Shown here piece after piece: positions 1-11,197 of a stretch of 11,197 bases of DNA (positions are counted from its first letter, which is position 1; each line of letters opens with the position of its first letter). The translations under genes and the position numbers were made by a program. Origin of the DNA: Candidatus Heimdallarchaeota archaeon (GTDB taxonomy: Archaea; Asgardarchaeota; Heimdallarchaeia; Hodarchaeales; Hodarchaeaceae); assembly GCA_048881705.1 (NCBI GenBank), contig JBHLSH010000097.1, forward strand, positions 1 through 11,197. Direction: 5' to 3'. The notes under the pieces are model-generated. The model worked only from the letters and a program-made list of their open reading frames with translations, was not told the origin of the DNA and searched no databases.

Positions 1-42
1 TATTCCGGAAGTATCCCGTTGCGATAGTGCCCCCTTATAGCT

Positions 43-52
43 TTTTAAACCA
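43..52 (+). promoter_or_regulatory. candidate TATA-like box upstream of the beta-helix gene
   Basis: TTTTAAACCA lies ~40 nt before the ATG at 94. The same 10-mer lies at 2269..2278, ~57 nt before the start at 2336. Position and composition fit an archaeal TATA box; no transcript evidence. Confidence 0.3.
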
Positions 53-93
53 ATATAACCCATTCTCAGGGGAAAAATCCTTAGGGTAGGAAC

Positions 94-1311
94 ATGAAAC
101 GCTGGCAATCTATTATTATTCCGATCTTCTCAGTTTTGGTTATGGCACATATTCTATGGGACGGACAACATTTCCTTCTGCCCATTGAACGGGAGGTTTT
201 GGTTAGAACCAATTTCAAGAGTCCTACTGCTCCTAATGTCCCTGATCAGATCTATACTCAACATGACCGTATCAATATCGTCGGTGACAAGGATCTGAAA
301 AATTCGTTTCCAGGTGGGGGGACGTTAAGTGACCCTATTCGGATTGAAGGATTCAACATCACTGCAGCGGCTGAGGATTTGATTTCCATTAGTGGAACTT
401 CGTCCTATTTCCGCATCGCAAATAACCTACTTAACGGGGATAATGGGTTGGGGAATGGGATTTCTCTCTATAATGTGACGAACGGAGAAATTTATAACAA
501 TGTTATCTTTGGTAATAACCAAAACGGAATAAAACTATACGTTTCAAACAACAACAGCGTTCATAACAACATTCTCTATAAAAATGGTTTTGCTGAAATA
601 AATTTAGCCCGTTCTAATAACAATAATATCTCCGAAAACACGGTTTCAAAAAACACATTTGCAGCGGGAATTTATCTTGTCAAGGATAATTCAAACAACG
701 TTATCTCGAATAACACACTCTTTAATAACGGCGTTGGAATCAGATTCGAGTCAGAAGCAAATAGAAACGAAGTGATCCAGAATGACTTGTATGAGAATAG
801 AGTAGGAATCCATCTAGAGTTTGTTAGGGATATTTCAGTTAAACAGAATAGGATTAGAGACAACCTCGCAGGAATAAAAGTTACAAGCGGGGATGGATTT
901 AGGTTTTCACGAAACATTACTGTATCTAGAAATCTGATTTATCATAATCAGGGATATGGTATGATTTTGGAACGGTTTTCCAAAGATATCAGGATTTCAA
1001 GTAACGATTTTATTAAAAATAACCAGAACAAGAACTCTCAAGCATTTGATGGCGGGGAGAATAATACATTTGCCTATAATTACTGGGATGAATGGACGGA
1101 TCCCGATTATAATAAGGATGGCTTTGTAGATTTTCCTTACAATATTGACGGATCAACAAATAATCAGGATGGTTTTTCTTGGGCTTCCCCTCCATCTTAT
1201 AATACTGAGATACCCCTAGAACACACAATGGCCGCTTTAATTCTCTTGATTTTGATTCTTGGCGCGCTAGGATTCTCGATTCTTCAACAACAATATCGGT
1301 CATATGGGTAG
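94..1311 (+). CDS. NosD-like right-handed parallel beta-helix surface protein with N-terminal hydrophobic leader and C-terminal TM anchor
   Basis: 405 aa. About 8 tandem 22-29 aa Asn-rich repeats of the type GIxLxxxxNxxIxxNxxxxN. N-terminal motif HDRINI...GGGTLSDPIRIEG and C-terminal YNYWDEWTDPDYNKDGFVDFPYNIDG (DxNxDG-like), both typical of archaeal beta-helix proteins. Hydrophobic N-terminus and C-terminal helix ALILLILILGALGFSIL. Confidence 0.85.
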   Translation: MKRWQSIIIPIFSVLVMAHILWDGQHFLLPIEREVLVRTNFKSPTAPNVPDQIYTQHDRINIVGDKDLKNSFPGGGTLSDPIRIEGFNITAAAEDLISISGTSSYFRIANNLLNGDNGLGNGISLYNVTNGEIYNNVIFGNNQNGIKLYVSNNNSVHNNILYKNGFAEINLARSNNNNISENTVSKNTFAAGIYLVKDNSNNVISNNTLFNNGVGIRFESEANRNEVIQNDLYENRVGIHLEFVRDISVKQNRIRDNLAGIKVTSGDGFRFSRNITVSRNLIYHNQGYGMILERFSKDIRISSNDFIKNNQNKNSQAFDGGENNTFAYNYWDEWTDPDYNKDGFVDFPYNIDGSTNNQDGFSWASPPSYNTEIPLEHTMAALILLILILGALGFSILQQQYRSYG

Positions 1312-1337
1312 GACCGAGTAATACTAAAGGATCTTTA

Positions 1338-1421
1338 ATGTACAAACGTCAAGGGCTATCCCCAGTGTTTGTCATCGAGATGCCGGAGGATAAACGGCTG
1401 GAGAGGGACGCTGCATTCTGA
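1338..1421 (+). CDS. putative 27-aa small protein MYKRQGLSPVFVIEMPEDKRLERDAAF (repeat family A, copy 1)
   Basis: ATG at 1338, TGA at 1419-1421, below the ORF-track cutoff. 16 of the last 22 residues match the frame in the copy at 4895..4970, and 8 of those 16 use different synonymous codons. Confidence 0.45.
   Translation: MYKRQGLSPVFVIEMPEDKRLERDAAF
1347..1421 (+). repeat. dispersed repeat family A, copy 1
   Basis: cgtcaagggcta-tccccagtgtttgtcatcgagatgccggaggataaacggctggagagggacgctgcattctga aligns to 4895..4970 at 56/76 columns with one gap. Confidence 0.9.
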
Positions 1422-1606
1422 GATGACCTAATACGTCTTCAGATTGATTCTTGGTTGGTTCGAGCTTTACAGCTTCTTACAATGACTGGATAATTCATTT
1501 AAACTTAAGGAAACGAAAATTATTTTGCTAGGCACGAATTCTACGATGATCACATGTCAATGATTAAAGGGGATCGTCTACCCATCTTGACAAAACCAAT
1601 TTTGGG

Positions 1607-1906
1607 ATGAAAACCGTGTCAAATGAAAATAAAAACACCATTAGCATTTTTGTTCAACTTGAGGCCCCAGATTTTGATACTTGGTACCACGAGCACGATA
1701 TACATGCCGATCATCGTAAGAACTATGGGATCATAGATGGACCAGTCTATCGAGATATTAGCAACCCAAATTCAGCCTTGGTGCATCTCATGACTGATGA
1801 CCTTCCTAAAGCAAAAGAATGGTTTGGAACGGATTTATTTAAAGCTGGGACCAAGAGAGCCAAGGTATCGAGTAGGAAAATTTATATGGCTGAGAATCGT
1901 AAGTAA
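1607..1906 (+). CDS. small dimeric alpha/beta-barrel (ABM-like) hypothetical protein
   Basis: 99 aa. The pattern FVQLEAPDFDTW...GI...VYRDISNPNSALVHL..DD..KAKEWF resembles the small 'DFDxW...RDxxDPN...A..F' barrel proteins. Family assigned by motif recognition only. Confidence 0.65.
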   Translation: MKTVSNENKNTISIFVQLEAPDFDTWYHEHDIHADHRKNYGIIDGPVYRDISNPNSALVHLMTDDLPKAKEWFGTDLFKAGTKRAKVSSRKIYMAENRK

Positions 1907-2119
1907 TGGAAAACAGCCCCAGATAATAATCAGGATAGGTTTGTAGACCTTCCTTACCCCATTGATGGTATAGCAAACAATCAAGATTTTTCTGCTCGGA
2001 CTTCGTCCATGCAAGCTTCCGCTAGGGGCCTCCCAGACCAGATCCAAATCGCCTTGATTTTTCTGGTCTTGATTCTAGGTACCCTTGGCGTCTCAGTCTG
2101 GAAACAAAGACAAAGATGA
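1907..2119 (+). pseudogene. 5'-truncated remnant: diverged copy of the C-terminal ~70 codons of the beta-helix gene (94..1311)
   Basis: Translates WKTAPDNNQDRFVDLPYPIDGIANNQDF...IALIFLVLILGTLGVSVWKQRQR*. Identity to ORF 94..1311 is 17/25 over TDPD...NNQD and 11/15 over the TM helix. No start codon before the conserved block. Confidence 0.88.
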
Positions 2120-2178
2120 CACAACAAGGCGATAGAGATAATCTGAATTAATTTCTCATCAATCGTGAACTTTTAAAC

Positions 2179-2198
2179 CCTGATTTAAAACAATCAGG
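2179..2198. other. perfect 7-bp inverted repeat (CCTGATT-taaaac-AATCAGG)
   Basis: Seen directly, 9 nt upstream of repeat A copy 2. Function unknown. Confidence 0.5.
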
Positions 2199-2207
2199 CC
2201 ATAACAA

Positions 2208-2250
2208 CGTCAAAGGCTTGTCTTTGGTGTTTTTTATCCGGAGGTCGGAA
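2208..2250 (+). repeat. dispersed repeat family A, copy 2 (5' part only)
   Basis: First 15 nt (CGTCAAAGGCTTGTC) identical to the copy at 4895; 34/43 overall; similarity is lost after ...tcggaa. Reads VKGLSLVFFIRRSE. Confidence 0.8.
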
Positions 2251-2335
2251 AGAATTGATAACCTAAAGTTTTAAACCATAAATGCCTTTATCGTGGTATT
2301 GGAAGAACATCAAGAAATCCGTAGGATAGCGCACA

Positions 2336-3511
2336 TTGCCAATATTTACATCTGAAGTAACCTGGGCTGTCGTGATACGATTAGCAGTCTTGGTAGGCGA
2401 ACTTGCGCTAATCTACGTTGTCATAAGGAAATACTTGAGGTCAGACTATTCTCGGATTTTAATCATTTTACTCATAGCGTTAATTGCCAATCTTGTTTCC
2501 AATGGGTTGAGTTTCAGCGCCATATTTATTCCAGAACCGGATCGAGATTTATTCCATAATATCAGGACCTTGGATTTTCTAAGCACTATTCTCTCGCTTT
2601 ATTTTTTTCTCCTCATCTTTGAATTTTTTGAATATGAAACCTTACTCACTCAAGGACAGCTGATTGGAACTGTATTAACAACTGTTACAACTATCTTCAT
2701 CGTTTATACAATACCTCAAGCAAACTGGCTAATCAATGAACAAATGTACTTCCAAAGCCTCGATTCCCCTATCCTGGTTTTCTTAAACCTATTCGGTAGT
2801 ATATTAGGGGCTTTTGTGATAACGACTCTGCGTAGAGGTCTGAAGGACGTCTGGATTACTCAGAGAGAGCAAATAATTTCAATGATTGCAAGTGTTTGTA
2901 TAATATCGTTCATTCCTTTCCTGTTTTCATTATTACTACTCTTTTTCAGTGATCAAGTATTCCTAATTGCAGAACCATTATCAAGAGGAGCAATACTGGC
3001 AGGTTATATCATTTTAACAATTTCTTTTGGTGGAACAAATCATTACAGCCAATACAATCGACGAAAAGCAGATAAGGTTCTTGTGACAAACCTGAGCGGG
3101 ATCCCACTCTTTCATTACGATTTTAAAGAAAATGTTCATTACATAAATGAAACGCTATTTTCTGGAGCTGTAGTTGCAATTACAATGCTAATGTCAGAAT
3201 CCATTAAGTCTCCATCCCCTATTGCTGAGGTATTAATGAAAAACAAATATCGGTTGATGCTCGAAACACGGGAATCCTTTATTGCCTTGATCCTAACACC
3301 ACAAGCTAATCCCTACCTTAGAAATTCTATAGAACGATTTGCTCGAGCTTTCGATCAAAAGTTCACTTCCATTATAACGTCAGGGGAGGTCCTAGACCTT
3401 AATCTTTTTGTCAAATCAGGACTTGGGCTATTGTTTGAAAATTTCGGAATATCCACGGTTAAAGTTAAGAGAATGGCAGCAATATTAACATTTGAAGAAA
3501 CAATAACGTAA
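2336..3511 (+). CDS. 7-TM membrane protein with C-terminal longin-like cytoplasmic domain
   Basis: 391 aa, TTG start. Seven hydrophobic segments in the first ~235 aa. The soluble tail KVLVTNLSGIPLFHYDF...ETLFSGAVVAITMLMSE...IAEV...LMLE...FIALI...LRNSIERFARAFDQKF matches the longin-like pattern common in Asgard proteins. Confidence 0.72.
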   Translation: MPIFTSEVTWAVVIRLAVLVGELALIYVVIRKYLRSDYSRILIILLIALIANLVSNGLSFSAIFIPEPDRDLFHNIRTLDFLSTILSLYFFLLIFEFFEYETLLTQGQLIGTVLTTVTTIFIVYTIPQANWLINEQMYFQSLDSPILVFLNLFGSILGAFVITTLRRGLKDVWITQREQIISMIASVCIISFIPFLFSLLLLFFSDQVFLIAEPLSRGAILAGYIILTISFGGTNHYSQYNRRKADKVLVTNLSGIPLFHYDFKENVHYINETLFSGAVVAITMLMSESIKSPSPIAEVLMKNKYRLMLETRESFIALILTPQANPYLRNSIERFARAFDQKFTSIITSGEVLDLNLFVKSGLGLLFENFGISTVKVKRMAAILTFEETIT

Positions 3512-3579
3512 AATTGCGTGTCGTGGTATTTAGCAGGAATATGATTCGAACTTATTTCAGAGTAAACGGATCGAGTCAG

Positions 3580-4422
3580 ATGAAACAGATTAACTCAAAT
3601 ATCATGTATGGTACTGCCTGGAAAGAAGAAAAAACTGAACTATTAACCTTAAATGCACTGATGGCAGGATTTAACTCGATTGATACTGCTAATCAACGTA
3701 AACACTACAATGAAGAAGGGGTAGGAAACGCCATACGTGCTTTTATAAAAGCGAAAGGAATAGACCGAGACGAATTATTTATTCAAACGAAATTTACTTA
3801 CAAAGAAGGACAAGATCACCGTTTACCGTTTGATCCTGAAGCAAAGCCAACGACTCAAGTAAATCAATCGTTTAATAGTTCATTAGAACATCTACAGATC
3901 GATTACATTGACTCATACGTGTTACATGGGCCCTCAGCACGTTTTGGAATATCTGCCCTTGATTGGGAGGTCTGGACAACAATGGAAAAATTGATCTCGG
4001 AAGGAAGGGTTAACCATTTGGGTATAAGTAATGTGAATCCTGAACAGCTGGAGATTTTATGTGAAAAGGTAGAGATCAAACCGTCATTTGTCCAGAATCG
4101 CTGTTTTGCGAGACTTGGATGGGATAAGGAAATCAGGGAGATATGCAAAAAGAATAATGTCACTTATCAAGGATTCTCATTGTTAACCGCTAACAGAGAG
4201 GTCCTGACCCATCCCAGAGTACTACAGATGAGTAAAACAATGAATAGAACAATTCCTCAAATAATTTTTAGTTTCGCTCGGCTTATTGGCATTTTACCGT
4301 TAACAGGAACAACAAATCGAAAACATATGGAAGAAGACCTCGAAAGCGTGAATATAATGCTTACAAAAGAACAAATAGACTACCTTACGAATATTTCAAT
4401 TGGCAGATCCCTGGATTATTGA
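3580..4422 (+). CDS. aldo/keto reductase
   Basis: Motifs YGTAWK, GFNSIDTA..KHYNE, LFIQTKFT, SLEHLQIDYIDSYVLHGP, LGISNV, VQN and IPQI..LPLTGTT..HMEEDL. ATG 3580 is preferred over the track's TTG 3514 because homology begins there. Confidence 0.92.
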   Translation: MKQINSNIMYGTAWKEEKTELLTLNALMAGFNSIDTANQRKHYNEEGVGNAIRAFIKAKGIDRDELFIQTKFTYKEGQDHRLPFDPEAKPTTQVNQSFNSSLEHLQIDYIDSYVLHGPSARFGISALDWEVWTTMEKLISEGRVNHLGISNVNPEQLEILCEKVEIKPSFVQNRCFARLGWDKEIREICKKNNVTYQGFSLLTANREVLTHPRVLQMSKTMNRTIPQIIFSFARLIGILPLTGTTNRKHMEEDLESVNIMLTKEQIDYLTNISIGRSLDY

Positions 4423-4451
4423 AAATACCCTTTTTTCCTGGAACTTCGTTA

Positions 4452-4727
4452 TTAGAGATAACGTACATCAAAGACATGTTTTCTGGCTTTCCCATCTGGA
4501 TTTTGGAAGATAAACACCTGGAAAGGGATACGCATTCTAAAAACGCCATGCGATTCACTTGAATATAAACCTTGTAAGATGGGTACTGAAATAAACAGAC
4601 CAGAAATTAGTGAGGAGAGAATGAAAAGAATCCATCCTCTCTTAGTCAAATCCTCTGATTCGGCAATTTCTCTTAACACACCGCTTTGAAAAGTAAAAGT
4701 TCCTACAACTTGAGACAAGAAACTCAT
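4452..4727 (-). pseudogene. truncated Yip1-like membrane protein fragment
   Basis: N-terminus MSFLSQVVGTFTFQSGVLREIAESEDLTKRGWILFILSSLISG resembles the start of prokaryotic Yip1-domain proteins, but only one TM follows. The last ~29 codons largely read through the antisense of repeat A copy 3. Confidence 0.45.
4466..4540 (+). repeat. dispersed repeat family A, copy 3 (1-nt deletion near the 3' end)
   Basis: catcaaagacatgttttctggctttcccatctggattttggaagataaacacctggaaagggatac-gcattctaa gives 52/76 vs 4895..4970, and 29/37 vs copy 1 over the 3' half. Reads IKDMFSGFPIWILEDKHLERD[fs]AF*, ending in TAA where the other copies have TGA. Confidence 0.85.
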
Positions 4728-4894
4728 AAGAAAAACCTCGGTAAAGTACTTGGATTTCTTTACATGTTAGGTTACCATTTAGTCTTGATATTCCCTCATT
4801 TGGATTATTTAAGTTTTTTCATTATTTGATGTAATTAAATCGACAATTACGAAAATATTGTTCGCTATTTTCCAAACTAATTACCAAGCACGAC

Positions 4895-4970
4895 CGTCAA
4901 AGGCTTGTCCTCGGTCTTTTCGATCCAGATTTCAGAAGATCAACGACTGGAGCGCGACGCGGCGTTCTGA
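4895..4970 (+). repeat. dispersed repeat family A, copy 4
   Basis: cgtcaaaggcttgtcctcggtcttttcgatccagatttcagaagatcaacgactggagcgcgacgcggcgttctga reads VKGLSSVFSIQISEDQRLERDAAF*. In-frame TAA upstream at 4878-4880 and no ATG. Confidence 0.9.
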
Positions 4971-5211
4971 TGGAGAAGCGAGATGATATCCAAGGAACCA
5001 GATGATGGGAAATAAAACCGTCATGGCCTTGCTGGGCTATTAAAACGATTGATCAAAGCGAATTAGGTCCCCAATCCTAGATAAGAAAAAAAAGCGTTTT
5101 CATGACGATGATGATCTTCTGTTTTATATCCTGCTCCCCAAAAAAACGTTACACTCTCCGTTTTTCGATTTCTGCAGTAAAGATTTCTTATAAGAACGAA
5201 TTTCCCATGAG

Positions 5212-5628
5212 TTGAAAGATTTTATAGGAGATTTATTATTGGATTCTGACATTCACAAAAAAATTAAGGCGAAATTAACAATTTTTGTTGACGCTATGCG
5301 GACTAAAGATGTCGAAACCATGGTCAGCGTATTTGACGAAGATTCAATTGTGCTCGGAGGCACAAGTCAATCACCAATTGAAGCTCATGGTCACGATGAA
5401 ATAAAACAAGTAATGAGTCTTTTCATCAAGAATTTAATTGATGGAGATATATTTTCAAGCCATATTTTTCAGATAGGGGATGAAATTTACGAAATGGGAA
5501 CGAATCGTATGGTTGTTGAAAATGAAGGCCAACAAAGAGAGGTAAAAGGAAATTATGTGACCGTTTGGAAACAAAATGAAGGAGACTGGTTTGTCAAAAA
5601 AGATATGCTACCTCCTATGCCAGAGTAA
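5212..5628 (+). CDS. SnoaL/NTF2-like (DUF4440-type) protein
   Basis: 138 aa, TTG start (uncertain). Pattern FVDAMRTKDVETMVSVFDEDSIVL...GHDEIK...IYEMG...KGNYVTVWKQNEGDWFV. Confidence 0.8.
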   Translation: MKDFIGDLLLDSDIHKKIKAKLTIFVDAMRTKDVETMVSVFDEDSIVLGGTSQSPIEAHGHDEIKQVMSLFIKNLIDGDIFSSHIFQIGDEIYEMGTNRMVVENEGQQREVKGNYVTVWKQNEGDWFVKKDMLPPMPE

Positions 5629-5820
5629 GCATGATCTCTAAAACATTAACATTTTTCCGAAATAGGCCGGTTCCATTAATATTGATTCACATTAAGAACA
5701 CTAAACTATCCTTTTATCTATAGAGTATAACAAAACCTGAAAACCCCCCTAAATTATAAGACCCGAAATACTCATCTCTTACAATAGATAGACAACTCCA
5801 CAACGCATGTAGTGATTTAA

Positions 5821-7332
5821 ATGTCAACACTAAGCGATCTGTATAGAGAATTAGTTGAACAAACTAGTGAAAAACTCATCCTGCAGCAAATCAATTCAAT
5901 TTTGGCATGGGATCAACATACATATATGCCCCCCAAAGGTGTAATTCAACGCGCTAAGCAAAAAGCATTATTAGCTTCGTTGATACACAAAAGGCGAACA
6001 GATCCTAAAATAGGAAAGTTACTTCAAGCTTTACAAACCCATTCCGAAATCTCAACTTTAACCGAGGTTGAGAGAAGAAATATTGAGATTATCGATCGGG
6101 AATACCGTAGATATTCGAAAGTTCCAAGCGAATTAGCTGTCAAAATTGCCCAACAATCGCCTATTTCTATTCAAGCATGGGAAAACGCAAGACGAGAGAA
6201 AGAATATTCAATTCTAAAACCTGAAATGGATAAAATGTTAGAACTCGTAAAAGAAAGATGTCATTATATAAATTCTGATTTAAAGCCCATTGATGTTATA
6301 ATTGATGAATATGAACCAGGAGTCACAGCTGATTACTTATCCAGCCTTTTTACAACTTTAAAAGCAGGACTTATCCAACTACTAGAAAGAATTCATAGTT
6401 CACCGATCAAACCTGATCTTTCAATAGTCAACCGAGAGTGTACTTTAGAAATTCAAACAGAATTATCACACGCTGTTGCAAACGTAGTTCAGTACGATCT
6501 CGAAAGAGGACGAATAGACACTTCAGCCCATCCTTTTACGAATGGTTTATGGGACGATGTACGTATAACGACGAGATATGATCCTAATGACTTTTCTGAT
6601 TCTTTTTTCGCGGTAATGCACGAATCTGGGCATGCCTTATATAATCAAAATTTGAATAAGGGGTTGAAATATCAACAAGTGGGCTTACCGTGTTCTGGTG
6701 GGGTTCATGAATCACAGTCACGATTTATTGAAAACATAATTGGTCGAAGTCGAGAGTTCTGGCAGTATTATTTTCCTATATTCCAAATGCTGACCAAAGG
6801 AATATATGATGACGTAACTCTGGAAGAATTTGTTTTAGCCATAAATGAGGTTAAACCATCAAAAATCCGAGTTAAAGCCGATGAAGTAACATATTCATTA
6901 CATGTTATACTTCGATTTGAGATAGAAAGAGATCTTCTTGAAGGGAAAATTTCAACAGTTGATCTCCCAGATATATGGAATGCCAAATACAAAGAATACC
7001 TTGGAATCGATTTTGAAGATGATTCTGAAGGTGTAATGCAAGATATTCATTGGCCTGCAGGAGGATTTGGTGCTTTCTATTCTTACGCGCTTGGAAATAT
7101 GTACAGTGCACAGATTTTACACACAATGAAAAAACAAATTCCTAACTATAAAGAGATTATAGAAAAGGGAGATATAAAAACACCGATCGATTGGTTGAGC
7201 GAATATGTGCATCAAAAATCGAATTTGTATGATCCTCTTACGCTGATAGAACAAATCACAGGAGAACCGCTTGATCCCAAGTATTACCTCCAATATTTGG
7301 ATGAAAAATACACCGACTTATACCAATTATAG
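5821..7332 (+). CDS. M32 family metallocarboxypeptidase
   Basis: 503 aa. WDQ.TYMP, HPF, DVRITTRY, HESGH (HEXXH), HESQS, IRVKADEVTYSLH..RFEIE and QDIHW motifs. Confidence 0.96.
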   Translation: MSTLSDLYRELVEQTSEKLILQQINSILAWDQHTYMPPKGVIQRAKQKALLASLIHKRRTDPKIGKLLQALQTHSEISTLTEVERRNIEIIDREYRRYSKVPSELAVKIAQQSPISIQAWENARREKEYSILKPEMDKMLELVKERCHYINSDLKPIDVIIDEYEPGVTADYLSSLFTTLKAGLIQLLERIHSSPIKPDLSIVNRECTLEIQTELSHAVANVVQYDLERGRIDTSAHPFTNGLWDDVRITTRYDPNDFSDSFFAVMHESGHALYNQNLNKGLKYQQVGLPCSGGVHESQSRFIENIIGRSREFWQYYFPIFQMLTKGIYDDVTLEEFVLAINEVKPSKIRVKADEVTYSLHVILRFEIERDLLEGKISTVDLPDIWNAKYKEYLGIDFEDDSEGVMQDIHWPAGGFGAFYSYALGNMYSAQILHTMKKQIPNYKEIIEKGDIKTPIDWLSEYVHQKSNLYDPLTLIEQITGEPLDPKYYLQYLDEKYTDLYQL

Positions 7333-7465
7333 AAGTGAACTGGATGTCCCTCCGTTTAAATGATTTTGTGATTGATCTGTGTCGTTTTTCCTGGTCCTTT
7401 AGGAAGATCGGGTTATTATCTCAGATGCAAACAGAACATTGGTTCAACCTGATTTCAAAACGGAC

Positions 7466-7497
7466 AAGGAAATCGGGCAAATCATTTCGATAACCCC
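7466..7497. repeat. dispersed repeat family B, copy 1
   Basis: AAGGAAATCGGGCAAATCATTTCGATAACCCC, 28/32 identical to 10907..10938. Confidence 0.85.
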
Positions 7498-7568
7498 TTG
7501 ATCGTCATTTGCGCTCTAGTCCCTTCGAAATTCGTTTTCGAATACGAAATCGCTGATACAGTTCCAAC

Positions 7569-8498
7569 TTAAGACTGAAAGTCTTCAGGATTTATCCCGC
7601 AGGTAACCTCTTGATTTTCAATTTGATATGCGTATGCCATACGAGGGGTATTAAACGCCAACCCAATTCCAGAAGAGGTTAACACAATTATCCCGCCCAA
7701 TCCGTTTACTTTAATATCCAAATCACGGATTGTCTGACTAGCTGCCTTTTGGGTTGAGGAGCCCGCTTTGATATATTGGATGCATGTATTTGTAGCCAAT
7801 ATTCGGATTAAATCTTCACCGTACCCTGTTGCTGCAGCTCCTCCAATATTTTTTTCCACGTATGCGCCGGAACCCCATAAAGGAGTATCTCCAACACGAC
7901 CTGCGCGTTTATATGGAGTACCTCCAGTCGAGAGGGCCACGCAGAAACTACCGGTTTGATCGAAACAGACACATCCTACCGTTCCGTGACCCTCTGGTTT
8001 GCCTTGTCTCCTAAAGGCATCTTTAGATCGATAAACCTGTTTCTCCCTTATTTCATGGTATCTCTCCAACTCTCGACCAATCAAAAGATCTTGGGGTTGT
8101 ACTTCAGGAAATCCCATTTCCCGAGCAAAAAGGTTAGCTCCTTTCCCTACTAACATGATATGATCAGTTTTTTCCATAACGAGGCGAGCAACCTGAACAG
8201 GGTTATTGATATTCTGAATTGCTGCGACAGAGCCAATTTTATATTCATCTGTTGCGATTATGGCATCCATTTCCACTTCAGCAATTTGATTGACAAATGA
8301 GCCCATGCCTGCGTCAAAAATGGGATTTTTTTCCATAAGTGTGATAGCATGTTCGGCCGCATTGAGAGCCGTTCCCTCGCTGTCCTCCAAAATTTCACTT
8401 GCTTCAAGGCATGCTTTTCTCACTCCTTTTAAATGCTCTTCTACCAGATTATCTGGAATATTCCACGCACCTCCGTGAACTATTACGCCATATCTCAT
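7569..8498 (-). CDS. iaaA: isoaspartyl peptidase / plant-type L-asparaginase (Ntn hydrolase)
   Basis: 309 aa. IVHGGA, FDAG.GS, EMDA, INNPV..AR.VMEKTDH, autocleavage site G|TVG, STGG, GRVGDTP and TGYGE motifs. Confidence 0.95.
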   Translation of the reverse strand: MRYGVIVHGGAWNIPDNLVEEHLKGVRKACLEASEILEDSEGTALNAAEHAITLMEKNPIFDAGMGSFVNQIAEVEMDAIIATDEYKIGSVAAIQNINNPVQVARLVMEKTDHIMLVGKGANLFAREMGFPEVQPQDLLIGRELERYHEIREKQVYRSKDAFRRQGKPEGHGTVGCVCFDQTGSFCVALSTGGTPYKRAGRVGDTPLWGSGAYVEKNIGGAAATGYGEDLIRILATNTCIQYIKAGSSTQKAASQTIRDLDIKVNGLGGIIVLTSSGIGLAFNTPRMAYAYQIENQEVTCGINPEDFQS

Positions 8499-8678
8499 TC
8501 AATCACACCATATTGACCTAATGAATTTTCAAATTTGACGTTCCTTCTGGAATTGGCCTTCTATGGTTCTCAGCCCTTGACTGTTTTTAGAAAACGGAGG
8601 AAGGCCTCGGGATTCTTTCCCTGAAACTCGGATATCGAAAATTGGGAAAGGAGGGATCACAAGATGGGAACCCCTTAG

Positions 8679-8717
8679 TTAGATTTCCGTAAAGCTGTCA
8701 ACTGTCTGGTAATCCAA
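8679..8717 (-). pseudogene. 13-codon remnant: diverged copy of the 3' end of the M42 peptidase gene
   Basis: Reads LDYQTVDSFTEI* against LDQETVDKFTEI* at 9662..9700: 9/12 aa and 30/39 nt, with three synonymous third-position changes (F, T, E). Starts 11 nt after the methyltransferase stop. Confidence 0.8.
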
Positions 8718-8728
8718 TCATTCGTTGC

Positions 8729-9421
8729 TTATTTCTGACATAAATATGCAGTATAATGGCTAAGTACATTTGTGCGGCCTCTGGATCGAACATCATGTCT
8801 GTTGAAATCAAAATACTCGATAATTTCCAAACCGCATTCTTTGAGGGAGGGGATTAGCTCAAATTTTGCAAATTCAATGGATAATAGGTAGCCTCCGTCA
8901 GAAAGGCTGTTCACAATATTCTCAATAGCTCGGAGTAGATTTTCTTGTTCTGCTCTCTTTTTTCCTTGCTTTCCTTTTTTTATATTAATGAAAATTCTCT
9001 GGCAAAAAGCTAAACCAATATCTCTTGGCAAATTGCTTCCTGTAACAATATCACCCCGAATGAAACTTGGAAGACGATTATCAGCCATCAATTGACACAA
9101 ATCGATTGCCGTTTTTTCTCCTATCCTGAGTTTATTCATCAAGTTATTTGAGCAATAATTGCATAAATGGTTTTCTAATTTTCGAATTTCATCCAAGGAA
9201 TATTGAAAATCTCCAGAAAATTTATCTAATTCAATGCAAATCGATTTATCTAATTCTAATGAGAGCGCAAAAGTAGTAATCCCAGAGCCGCACCCAAAAT
9301 CACAAATTCTTATCTTTTCAGGTTTCAATCCAAATCTTTGCATTATCTTTCTTATATCTTCACGAATTAGATGCGTATATTTGATGTACTTACGAATCCT
9401 TATATCAGGTCCAGAGTTCAT
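8729..9421 (-). CDS. class I SAM-dependent methyltransferase
   Basis: 230 aa. Motif I ICDFGCGSG, acidic residue after beta2 (CIELD), RGD, and a late LSDGGYLLSIE motif. Substrate not inferable. Confidence 0.8.
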   Translation of the reverse strand: MNSGPDIRIRKYIKYTHLIREDIRKIMQRFGLKPEKIRICDFGCGSGITTFALSLELDKSICIELDKFSGDFQYSLDEIRKLENHLCNYCSNNLMNKLRIGEKTAIDLCQLMADNRLPSFIRGDIVTGSNLPRDIGLAFCQRIFINIKKGKQGKKRAEQENLLRAIENIVNSLSDGGYLLSIEFAKFELIPSLKECGLEIIEYFDFNRHDVRSRGRTNVLSHYTAYLCQK

Positions 9422-9661
9422 TGGATTACTCTACATTCCTCTCTAGGCTTTTGCCAAACATCAAATTATGAGAACATGGAATAGTTTCTTTATCAATTAA
9501 GAGGATTCCTATGCATCGCTAGGTACCACGCTTTACAAAGATCCTTGCATGGAATTTCGAATTTCTGCCTTCTTCAGTAGAATGCCCGTAGACAATAAAT
9601 ATGAGAAAGGGTCAGCCTTCTGATAGGAAAGCAAAAATCAGTTGATTGTAAGCCCCTAAAT

Positions 9662-10786
9662 TTAGATCTCTGTGAACTTGTCAACTGTTTCTTGATCCAA
9701 CCTTTTTAGAATTTCAATTATTAGAATAATTGCCTTATTAACGTCAGCTAAATCTAAGATTCCATTGTGAGAATGAATATGGCGTGTCGGAACTCCCAAA
9801 ACTATGGATGGACAACCAGAGCCCGTTATGTGAATTACTCCTGCATCAGTGCCTCCACCCATCACGACTGAGGCTTGATAATCAATTCCTATTTCTTTGG
9901 CAACATCAATCACAAAATGACGAAATCGAGGATTTGGAATCATCGTGGCGTCTCCTGCAAGTATCGATACTCCTTTTGACATCTCCGCGGGAGCTTTCAG
10001 TTTTTCGACCCCCGGGACATCACTCGAAATGTCCACTTCTAAGGCAATTCCTATATCGGGATTTATCGTTTGAGCTGCTGTTCGTGCGCCTCGTAATCCT
10101 ATTTCTTCCTGGACGGTTGCGACCCCAAAAATCTGATTCGGGTGTGAAATATTCCCTTCCTTAATGCTTCTTATTACTTCCGCTGCGATAAATGCTCCGA
10201 TTCTGTCATCAAATGCTTTTCCAACAGCCAGAGTTGCTTTTCTCTCTTTTTCTTTTCCGTTGTCATCTTTCTCAATCTGAATTCGTTCCAATAATTCAAA
10301 TTTTGAATCAGGCGTAATTGGATCACCTATTTGAATTCCCAGATTCTCGATTTCCTTTTTGCTTTTGCAACCTACATCGATGAACATTTTATCTTTTGTC
10401 AAAACTTTTTTCCTCACTTCAGGATCAAGAACATGGGGAGGAGGGGCAGTAATTATTCCACGGTAGGTTTTCCCGTTTCTATTTCGAACTAACACCCTTT
10501 GAGTGAGCAAGGATTGATCCCACCATCCTCCTATTTGGTGAAAGGTCAAGTATCCCAGATCATTTATCCCCGTGACCATCATTCCGATTTCATCTATATG
10601 GCCTGCAAGCATAATTTTTGGACCGATGCTCCCAATTTTGAAAATCAAGGAACCTGTTTTATCTTTGAACACTTCATCGGAAAATGTGCTTACATATTCC
10701 TTAATAATTCTTGATACTTCAATTTCATGCCCTGAAGGGCCAAATGCGTTGCTCAACTTCTCTAAAAAAGGTATTTCAATGTCCAT
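9662..10786 (-). CDS. M42 family (TET/FrvX-like) metalloaminopeptidase
   Basis: 374 aa. GPSGHE, MLAGHIDEIG, KAFDDRIG, VQEEIGLRGA, ALEVD, GGTDAG and PTRHIHS metal-ligand motifs. Confidence 0.96.
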   Translation of the reverse strand: MDIEIPFLEKLSNAFGPSGHEIEVSRIIKEYVSTFSDEVFKDKTGSLIFKIGSIGPKIMLAGHIDEIGMMVTGINDLGYLTFHQIGGWWDQSLLTQRVLVRNRNGKTYRGIITAPPPHVLDPEVRKKVLTKDKMFIDVGCKSKKEIENLGIQIGDPITPDSKFELLERIQIEKDDNGKEKERKATLAVGKAFDDRIGAFIAAEVIRSIKEGNISHPNQIFGVATVQEEIGLRGARTAAQTINPDIGIALEVDISSDVPGVEKLKAPAEMSKGVSILAGDATMIPNPRFRHFVIDVAKEIGIDYQASVVMGGGTDAGVIHITGSGCPSIVLGVPTRHIHSHNGILDLADVNKAIILIIEILKRLDQETVDKFTEI

Positions 10787-10906
10787 CTGTTTCTTTCTCC
10801 AGCATACGAATCCTATTGAAGATGGAAGTCAGAGAAAGGTGTAAAAGAAAAGGATTGTGGTAGATTGGCAGGATCAGAATATTATTAAGTTCTTATTCAG
10901 TACAAG

Positions 10907-10938
10907 AAGGAAATCGAACAAATCATTTCGATAGCACC
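10907..10938. repeat. dispersed repeat family B, copy 2
   Basis: AAGGAAATCGAACAAATCATTTCGATAGCACC, containing the perfect inverted repeat ATCGAA-N8-TTCGAT (10913..10932) and followed by TTTATA. Confidence 0.85.
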
Positions 10939-11027
10939 TTTATAGCCAATTGTAGAGAAAGAAACCCAGGCCAAAATTCCATAAAGTAATAAATACCACG
11001 ACTGATGATATGTAGGGTGAGCAGATA

Positions 11028-11197
11028 ATGTCACCAAGCCCAACAACCGAGAATGAAATATTAATGCACCAAAGAGTCGTCATGAAGCGTCGTCAGCTCT
11101 GGAAAAGACTAATCAATTCTGATTTTCGACCCGAATGGTTTGCAAGCAGAATTAAACCACATATGTGGGCTATTGACGAAATTTTCCGGCATATGCT
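11028..11197 (+). CDS. partial ORF (runs off the window), possibly DinB-like
   Basis: Not in the supplied track. ATG 11028 follows a GGTGA Shine-Dalgarno-like motif (11016..11020). Open to the window end: MSPSPTTENEILMHQRVVMKRRQLWKRLINSDFRPEWFASRIKPHMWAIDEIFRHM. WAIDEIFRHM resembles the DinB 'WSxxEixxH' motif. Confidence 0.55.
   Translation, partial: MSPSPTTENEILMHQRVVMKRRQLWKRLINSDFRPEWFASRIKPHMWAIDEIFRHM

Follow-up and report, generated by a model that had tools for sequence, protein, structure and literature searches.

Small modules that carry no integrase of their own, share a recurring site, and are served by a host recombinase acting in trans are represented by the Xer-dependent IMEX elements and the pdif modules of Acinetobacter plasmids. 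The element e14 of E. coli K-12, at icd/icdC, lies within a housekeeping gene, at its 3′ end (Hill et al., 1989, via PMC13626634). There, icd is kept intact by a substitute end that comes with e14 and departs from the original mostly at synonymous sites; the original C-terminal fragment is described as a pseudogene on the far side, and recombination between the two icd copies as removing the insert (PMC13626634). A survey of Thaumarchaeota reported integration of elements into the 3′-distal parts of genes that code for proteins and re-use of one site, which results in tandem arrays (PMC6563490). Here, we describe stacked copies of a gene end in Candidatus Heimdallarchaeota archaeon, an Asgard archaeon of the order Hodarchaeales. 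The analyzed DNA (hereafter, the window) is the entire contig JBHLSH010000097.1 of assembly GCA_048881705.1 (11,197 nucleotides (nt), positions 1 to 11,197 of the forward strand). It contains four copies of a repeat of approximately 84 nt, which is the last 26 codons plus the stop codon of smc. Very probably, this repeat is a scar left by recombination, and it does not represent a small-protein family of its own.

A DNA profile made from the copies was searched with nhmmer against the whole 3.96-Mb assembly of the source genome (G000; its closest relative is denoted G001, and the window contig, C97). All four plus-strand copies noticed in the first-pass annotation were recovered, with E-values summarized as 3e-21 to 9e-6. 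Copy 1 (1338..1421; E=2.6e-21) is of full length and has a 1-nt deletion. Copy 2 (2200..2250, extended to 2200–2264 by nhmmer; E=8.7e-6) comprises the left half only, breaking off after ...GGAGGTCGGAAAG in the alignment of partial copies. Copy 3 (4457..4540; E=2.9e-18) is the most decayed of the full copies, with a 1-nt deletion and a TAA stop, and copy 4 (4886..4970; E=2.1e-22) retains an intact reading frame. The identity of 65–79% given by a repeat finder agrees with the initially reported 64–79%, and the stops indeed vary as TGA, TAA, and TGA. All copies in both G000 and G001 share the left boundary (T)GTACAAACGTC, corresponding to codons C-T-N-V. The copies are situated 36–91 nt past same-strand stop codons. 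On the right, full copies end at the stop codon (TGA/TAA); the earlier observation that homology ceases exactly there holds for most of them, but a few pairs share about 16–19 nt more.

The parent gene is located directly upstream of the window. The search for a long open reading frame (ORF) ending in the repeat peptide, proposed at the outset, yielded an intact 1200-aa (amino acid) ORF on contig C23 (9374..5772, minus strand), which reads …SGGEKALTALAF…FYILDEIDAALD…QFLVISHRDILMAWADRLYGCTNVKGLSSVFSIQMSEDKRLERDATF and has the C-terminus …LYGCTNVKGLSSVFSIQMSEDKRLERDATF. Its true end is the copy at C23 5856–5772, with which copy 1 aligns. The ORF matches the Pfam family SMC_N (1.4e-45), and its match to the hinge domain PF06470 is below the threshold (E 2.8e-4; 21.7 bits at a cut-off of 22.5 bits). 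The alignment with the Pyrococcus SMC head structures (E=2e-40) extends into the repeat peptide, where …VISHRDILMAWADRLYGCTNVKGLSSVFSIQMSED is matched to …VITLRDVMMANADKIIGVSMRDGVSKVVSLSLEKA of Pyrococcus, the repeat peptide forming the final strand region in the ATPase head of SMC. Near database homologs from the same genus bear the source name "chromosome segregation protein SMC" (of Candidatus Hodarchaeales). Thus, the suggestion that the copies are 3′-end relics of a formerly mobile gene was right in that they are relics of a gene end, but the gene is an intact chromosomal housekeeping smc, neither mobile nor a transposase. The tail of a transposase or insertion sequence is ruled out by the same identification.

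The repeat had been described as dispersed, which does not hold: outside the window, the profile matches only C23 (four places on the minus strand, all in the first 5.9 kb) and the start of C40, so that the genome-wide copies are confined to three neighboring contigs and form one local array. Positions 1..111 of the window (plus strand) overlap the end of reverse-complemented C23 (111 nt, one mismatch), which joins the window to smc and three further relics, and positions 11074–11197 overlap the start of C40 (124 nt, four mismatches). The contig order is reverse-complemented C23, C97, C40, and G001 is collinear across both joins on a single 150-kb contig. Both joins fall within the array, which accounts for the assembly breaks here. 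The overlaps with one and four mismatches point to strain variants in the population sampled as the reason why assembly was interrupted within the variable array.

In total, the terminal ~84 nt of smc recur approximately ten times, in full or by half, on the same strand over ~19 kb downstream of the gene. In coordinates of the joined sequence ("own" coordinates, equal to the window coordinate plus 9289), they comprise a full relic at 4427, an internally deleted one at 7272, a full one at 9165 (C23 238–154), copies 1, 2, 3, and 4 at 10628, 11492, 13749, and 14176, respectively, and decayed left halves at C40 514 and C40 2026 (2026–2070).

The copies look coding, and their differences are distributed accordingly. 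Summed over the nine full relics, each compared with its own genome's working smc end, there are 37, 19, and 80 differences at codon positions 1, 2, and 3 (p=1e-9, although the relics are not independent). For copy 4, the respective numbers are 3, 1, and 14 (binomial p=1.4e-4), i.e., 14 synonymous and four non-synonymous codon changes, and the NG86 estimates are dN 0.07 and dS 2.4, the latter being saturated. The third-position bias initially counted for copies 1 and 4 (6/2/12 along their entire length) is reproduced as 5/1/9 over the last 19 codons. The dN/dS ratio of the relics ranges from 0.03 to 0.33 and is 0.03–0.05 for three relics of G001. As judged by these codon changes, the copies are shown to have diverged under purifying selection. 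A relic that had been copied and was then drifting would change evenly over the codon positions; hence both sequences were serving as smc ends, whether in separate lineages or at separate times, when the divergence arose, and the displaced copy has altered little since its displacement. The codon bias is explained by each copy, or at least its right half, having once served as the working smc end, and not by present-day translation. There are also signs that the imported smc ends came from diverged lineages.

Copy 1 is indeed an ATG-started 27-aa ORF, and the remaining copies lack a start or are frameshifted, as had been noted. In copy 1, an upstream ATG is placed in the smc frame by the 1-nt deletion. 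In G001, the orthologous copy (positions 6170–6253 of locus L033) has no such deletion, and its ATG opens only an 18-codon out-of-frame ORF; the 27-aa ORF is therefore accidental. Two other readings of the codon pattern were discarded. Silent cassettes supplying variation of the SMC tail, as in pilS-like systems, do not fit copies that encode nearly the same peptide. A template and variable repeat of a diversity-generating retroelement is inconsistent with the dependence of the differences on codon position, and the Pfam scan of array ORFs gave no reverse transcriptase.

For 20 congeneric genomes, we compared the DNA downstream of smc over as much as 20 kb. Extra copies were found only in G001, whose SMC C-terminus is 93% identical; it has seven, four full and three partial. 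Of the other 19 congeners, the 17 with contigs covering the full 20 kb have the true smc end alone, and three contigs end 1–2 kb past smc. In all eight congeners examined in this respect, a conserved gene of 281–298 aa follows smc within a few tens of nucleotides; it has no Pfam match and hence was not called ScpA. A separate observation concerns the congener G012, in which an orphan frameshifted 149-nt copy of the smc 3′ end (locus L093, G012:C2:273023-273139, minus strand) lies far from smc, between M24 peptidase and rhodanese/TusA genes. It is 72% identical to the smc end of G012 itself and reaches the stop codon; its left boundary is unlike that of the G000 and G001 relics, and its chromosomal context is ordinary.

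Homology between the G000 and G001 arrays breaks at the smc stop codon (own 3630; L033 978), inside a relic (own 9192; L033 4734), at the end of a relic (own 10708; L033 6251), 5 nt after half-copy 2 (own 11545; L033 6663), inside copy 3 (own 13785, i.e., window 4496, the end of homology block C; L033 8903), and at the end of a half-relic (C40 2070; L033 14389), beyond which G000 carries 1.1 kb more than G001. The orthologous relics at own 9165 and G001 4706 are mosaic: the left ~30 nt are strongly different, and the right part together with the downstream flank is almost identical, which is the product that would be expected from a crossover inside the repeat. Recombination, as read from these alignments, is shown to have occurred within copies, at the junctions of variable DNA blocks. 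The blocks closest to smc, three in G000 and two in G001, are unrelated in content, the G001 ones encoding a methyltransferase, a YdjM-like protein, and others, whereas the distal blocks are common to both genomes, with 84–88% protein identity. Copy 4 has no orthologue in G001.

The direction of replacement can be read at another gene of the window, encoding an M42 peptidase on the minus strand. Its working 3′ end (9662..9705) is followed by a single-gene insert (8723..9661, minus strand) with a methyltransferase-like ORF (8729–9421; Pfam Methyltransf_23 2.5e-5, below the curated cut-off), and then by the displaced ancestral end (8679..8722, minus strand), comprising the last ~13 codons plus the stop. 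The latter, repeat D4, is 75% identical to 9662–9705. The 983 nt between the two M42 ends, with the methyltransferase-like ORF as their sole content, are absent from G001, where the M42 and asparaginase genes are adjacent, ~126 nt apart. The displaced end with its flank is identical to the working G001 end in 48 of 52 positions, with the match running past the stop. Of the last 29 nt of the G001 end, the relic shares 28, whereas the working end of G000 departs from G001 at five; the ancestral end codes for DSFTEI* and the working one for DKFTEI*. Since the relic matches G001 and the working end is the diverged one, the insert is shown to have brought a substitute M42 end and to have displaced the ancestral one. 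The synteny around M42 is not conserved in the other congeners and so provides no outgroup for the distal part of the array.

When the terminal 60 nt of each of 2981 ORFs were compared with 6 kb of flanking DNA, with the opposite strand as a control, further stop-aligned, short-frame, same-strand downstream copies were revealed apart from tandem paralogs. They are situated on C25 (gene 31777–32457, minus strand; relic 30605–30664), C62 (gene 9563–10144, minus strand; relic 4013–4072), and C90 (gene 419–1960, plus strand; relic 2332–2391). Each is a diverged copy of the last 55–110 nt with mostly conservative codon changes, 0.4–5.5 kb downstream of the gene. At the same thresholds, the opposite-strand control gave zero to one match. 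On C90, the homology extends beyond the stop and also, offset by 1 nt, upstream, so that this case may represent a simple duplication in place.

Near smc, the array copies edge blocks of zero to two genes (hereafter, cassettes), and the inserts there are 0.35–2.8 kb long. The first interval after smc holds a DUF5615 PIN-like gene together with a small ORF as its partner, the second an 831-aa NosD-like beta-helix protein (on C23), and the third a 547-aa TPR protein. The fourth, between the relic at C23 238–154 and copy 1, contains the gene of a 405-aa right-handed beta-helix (NosD-like) protein (94..1311, plus strand; Pfam Beta_helix 1e-20, NosD 1e-19); a gene with 88% identity occupies the same position in the G001 array. 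The fifth (1422..2199, plus strand) is specific to G000 and carries a 99-aa ORF (1607–1906) and a NosD-like tail stump (1907–2119); in G001 this cassette is absent, and 410 unrelated nt stand in its place. Window positions 1913–2214 match the 831-aa NosD-like cassette on C23 in its tail, spacer, and relic start, at 82% identity. More generally, a NosD-like C-terminal part with a membrane anchor is seen three times (1102–1311 and 1907–2119 in the window, and C23 2221–2400), with a spacer and then an smc relic behind each occurrence; the stretch at 1907–2119 is a gene stump without a body.

The sixth interval (2251..4456, plus strand) is common to G001, with 85% nucleotide identity over 2241 nt and relics on either side, and encodes a 391-aa membrane protein (2336–3511) and an aldo/keto reductase (3514–4422; Pfam Aldo_ket_red 4.5e-31). 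The membrane protein is multi-pass, has no Pfam match, and is 87% conserved in the same G001 cassette. The seventh (4541..4885, plus strand; 345 nt) is specific to G000 and may be called empty: it contains no convincing gene, only a 91-aa ORF on the minus strand with no Pfam match, and does not align to G001. The eighth is a longer stretch with DUF4440, M32, asparaginase, methyltransferase-like, M42, and DinB-like genes. The GC content of cassettes (0.33–0.42, the genome value being 0.41) is uninformative. Adjoining the asparaginase and M42 genes, there is also an intergenic 46-nt direct repeat with 83% identity (7466–7511 and 10907–10952), unrelated to the smc relic.

Unlike the identity of the copies, their array, and the variation between G000 and G001, the recombination route that produced the smc copies is a matter of inference. 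Blocks of zero to two genes would have repeatedly recombined into the ~84-nt end segment of smc or into a copy of it displaced earlier. Each incoming block would have carried its own version of the segment, so that smc stayed complete after the crossover, and the previous end would have been pushed downstream, where, no longer translated, it would slowly decay. Each copy, or its right half, would then be a former working end from this or a donor lineage. The route we prefer, while holding it tentatively, is that circular cassette DNA containing one 84-nt segment would have been inserted and excised through single crossovers between homologous sequences; the circles would have been excised between two copies in related genomes, and the common left boundary would have been inherited from one founding event. 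It fits the observations because the crossover positions vary around the middle of the repeat, half-copies exist, and the imported ends differ synonymously. A less likely route is action of a site-specific recombinase in trans on a core inside the segment, e.g., by a single host tyrosine recombinase; it fits because the boundary is sharp and the pattern recurs at the ends of other genes. In a search of the relic, no convincing symmetric core was found, and the best symmetric 11-7-11 candidate for a dif-like site was rejected, as its arms match at 7 of 11 positions, which is about chance by a rough estimate.

The array could also have been formed purely internally, by tandem or segmental duplication of the smc-tail unit through unequal crossing-over or slippage, with neither foreign DNA nor replacement of the end, the genes arriving or diverging later. 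Such a history would explain why the unit of NosD-like tail, spacer, and relic start is repeated (window 1102–1187 and 1919–2004; own 6977–7277 and 11202–11503, 82%), why three cassettes have NosD-like paralogs, and why the array contains no recombinase gene. It is nevertheless improbable, since neutral decay predicts even codon positions, at odds with the predominance of synonymous changes and saturated dS of copy 4; moreover, the genes between the copies are mostly unrelated to each other (PIN-like toxin pair, TPR protein, membrane protein, aldo/keto reductase), the proximal cassettes of G000 and G001 are entirely different, and the working M42 end is the foreign one. Far less probable still is a selected peptide ...EDxRLERDAAF, be it an unannotated multicopy family of small proteins of ~25 aa, as had initially been entertained, or a set of C-terminal extensions of upstream genes. 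The ORF of copy 1 and the low dN/dS of several copies speak for it, and the dN/dS test proposed earlier did return low values; they are, however, explained by past service as the smc end. An in-frame start is present in only one of the approximately ten copies and is not conserved in the out-of-frame G001 orthologue, several copies are of half length, copies 2 and 3 and those on C40 are truncated or frameshifted, and a peptide that forms a strand of the SMC head would not fold alone. We give equally little credence to a structured non-coding element, i.e., an attC-like hairpin, a terminator, or a small RNA. The location of the copies shortly behind same-strand stops is what one would see for attC sites or terminators, but when three copies were folded as single-stranded DNA, neither strand did better than shuffled sequences (z from −1.1 to +1.0), the RNAalifold consensus of 11 copies reaches only −6.6 kcal/mol with a covariation term of −1.3, window positions 1–5400 have no Rfam match at E<=1, and the sequence is demonstrably smc coding sequence.

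Several observations weigh against repeated capture with replacement of the smc end. The array is partly a product of simple duplication, as the NosD-like tail, spacer, and relic unit is present three times. The ancestral and imported copies could be told apart only for M42 and not for smc, as G000 and G001 both carry arrays. The Pfam scan of ORFs of at least 60 aa in both arrays found no integrase, transposase, or recombinase family. Each genome has one tyrosine recombinase, outside the array (PF00589 only on C16 in G000, at 37677–38165, and on C5 in G001); a whole-genome PF00239 search also gave two small serine recombinases on other small contigs of G000. The distal copies are short and weak, that at C40 2026–2070 having a genome-wide E-value of 0.33 and resting mainly on its G001 orthologue and the breakpoint at its end. 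The G000 version of the 281–298-aa gene that follows smc in congeners is located on C25 (20635–21426) with no relic nearby, and the end of the array does not restore this ancestral neighbor. The array is therefore not a clean insertion between smc and its old neighbor in G000, and a rearrangement must also be assumed. No free or circular form of a cassette was found, and a protein-database search with the SMC C-terminus gave no third strain, only the genome's own cluster being above 86% identity. On C25, the former neighbor of smc sits behind a divergent aminotransferase-like gene. Metagenome hits to the exact CGGAGGAYAAACGGCTGGAG were set aside: there were 16 single matches in unrelated samples, and the profile matched only the pattern or a few flanking bases, i.e., by chance.

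The M42 case repeats the e14/icd pattern, with an empty site in G001. The two systems differ in that e14, a prophage-like element of 15 kb, has an integrase of its own and one relic, whereas here about ten relics are stacked behind one gene, the smc-near inserts measure 0.35–2.8 kb, and the array has no recombinase. With the thaumarchaeal elements (PMC6563490), the array shares an archaeal host, a target at the 3′ end of a protein-coding gene, direct repeats in the role of att sites, and repeated use of the site. Those elements are, however, proviruses, casposons, and integrative-conjugative elements with their own integrase or casposase, and their att sites or target duplications are usually described as short; here, an 84-nt repeat running up to the stop codon bounds, in the smc-near part, zero to two ordinary metabolic, surface, or toxin–antitoxin genes.

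Integrons resemble the array in being one-directional arrays of short cassettes with a recurring element of ~80 nt, in which the newest, strain-specific cassettes stand by the anchor and the older, shared ones farther away. However, no IntI lies beside the array, which is headed by smc, the tyrosine recombinase being on another contig; further, the repeat has no attC-type hairpin and is itself coding sequence of the anchor gene. The Xer-dependent modules are similarly small and integrase-less, with a recurring boundary site, but no dif-like 11-6-11 site is established in the relic. The type of scar is already known, and what sets the present case apart is the stacking of about ten relics, the small size of the cassettes, the lack of a recombinase gene in the arrays, and the Asgard host.

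For annotation, the array demonstrates that an intergenic repeat is not necessarily a gene even when its coding signature is strong and its dN/dS low, as it can be the fossilized end of a gene next to it, and that nearby genes and neighboring contigs should be checked before a small protein is called. For the biology of Hodarchaeales-type Asgard archaea, it means a hot spot of gene turnover behind an essential gene of chromosome organization. It is possible, although we would put this forward only as a doubtful extrapolation, that the Hodarchaeales lineage runs an integrase-free, integron-like platform for gene capture on the last 84 nt of smc. If so, cassettes with their own copy of the segment would be exchanged among related species and stacked by recombination inside it, and capture anchored at 3′ ends would also operate at M42 and at the loci on C25, C62, and C90, providing a general route by which the archaea closest to eukaryotes would gain genes. 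Should the process prove general, it would offer a mechanism, traceable in sequences, for piecemeal acquisition of genes, relevant to the growth of Asgard genomes.

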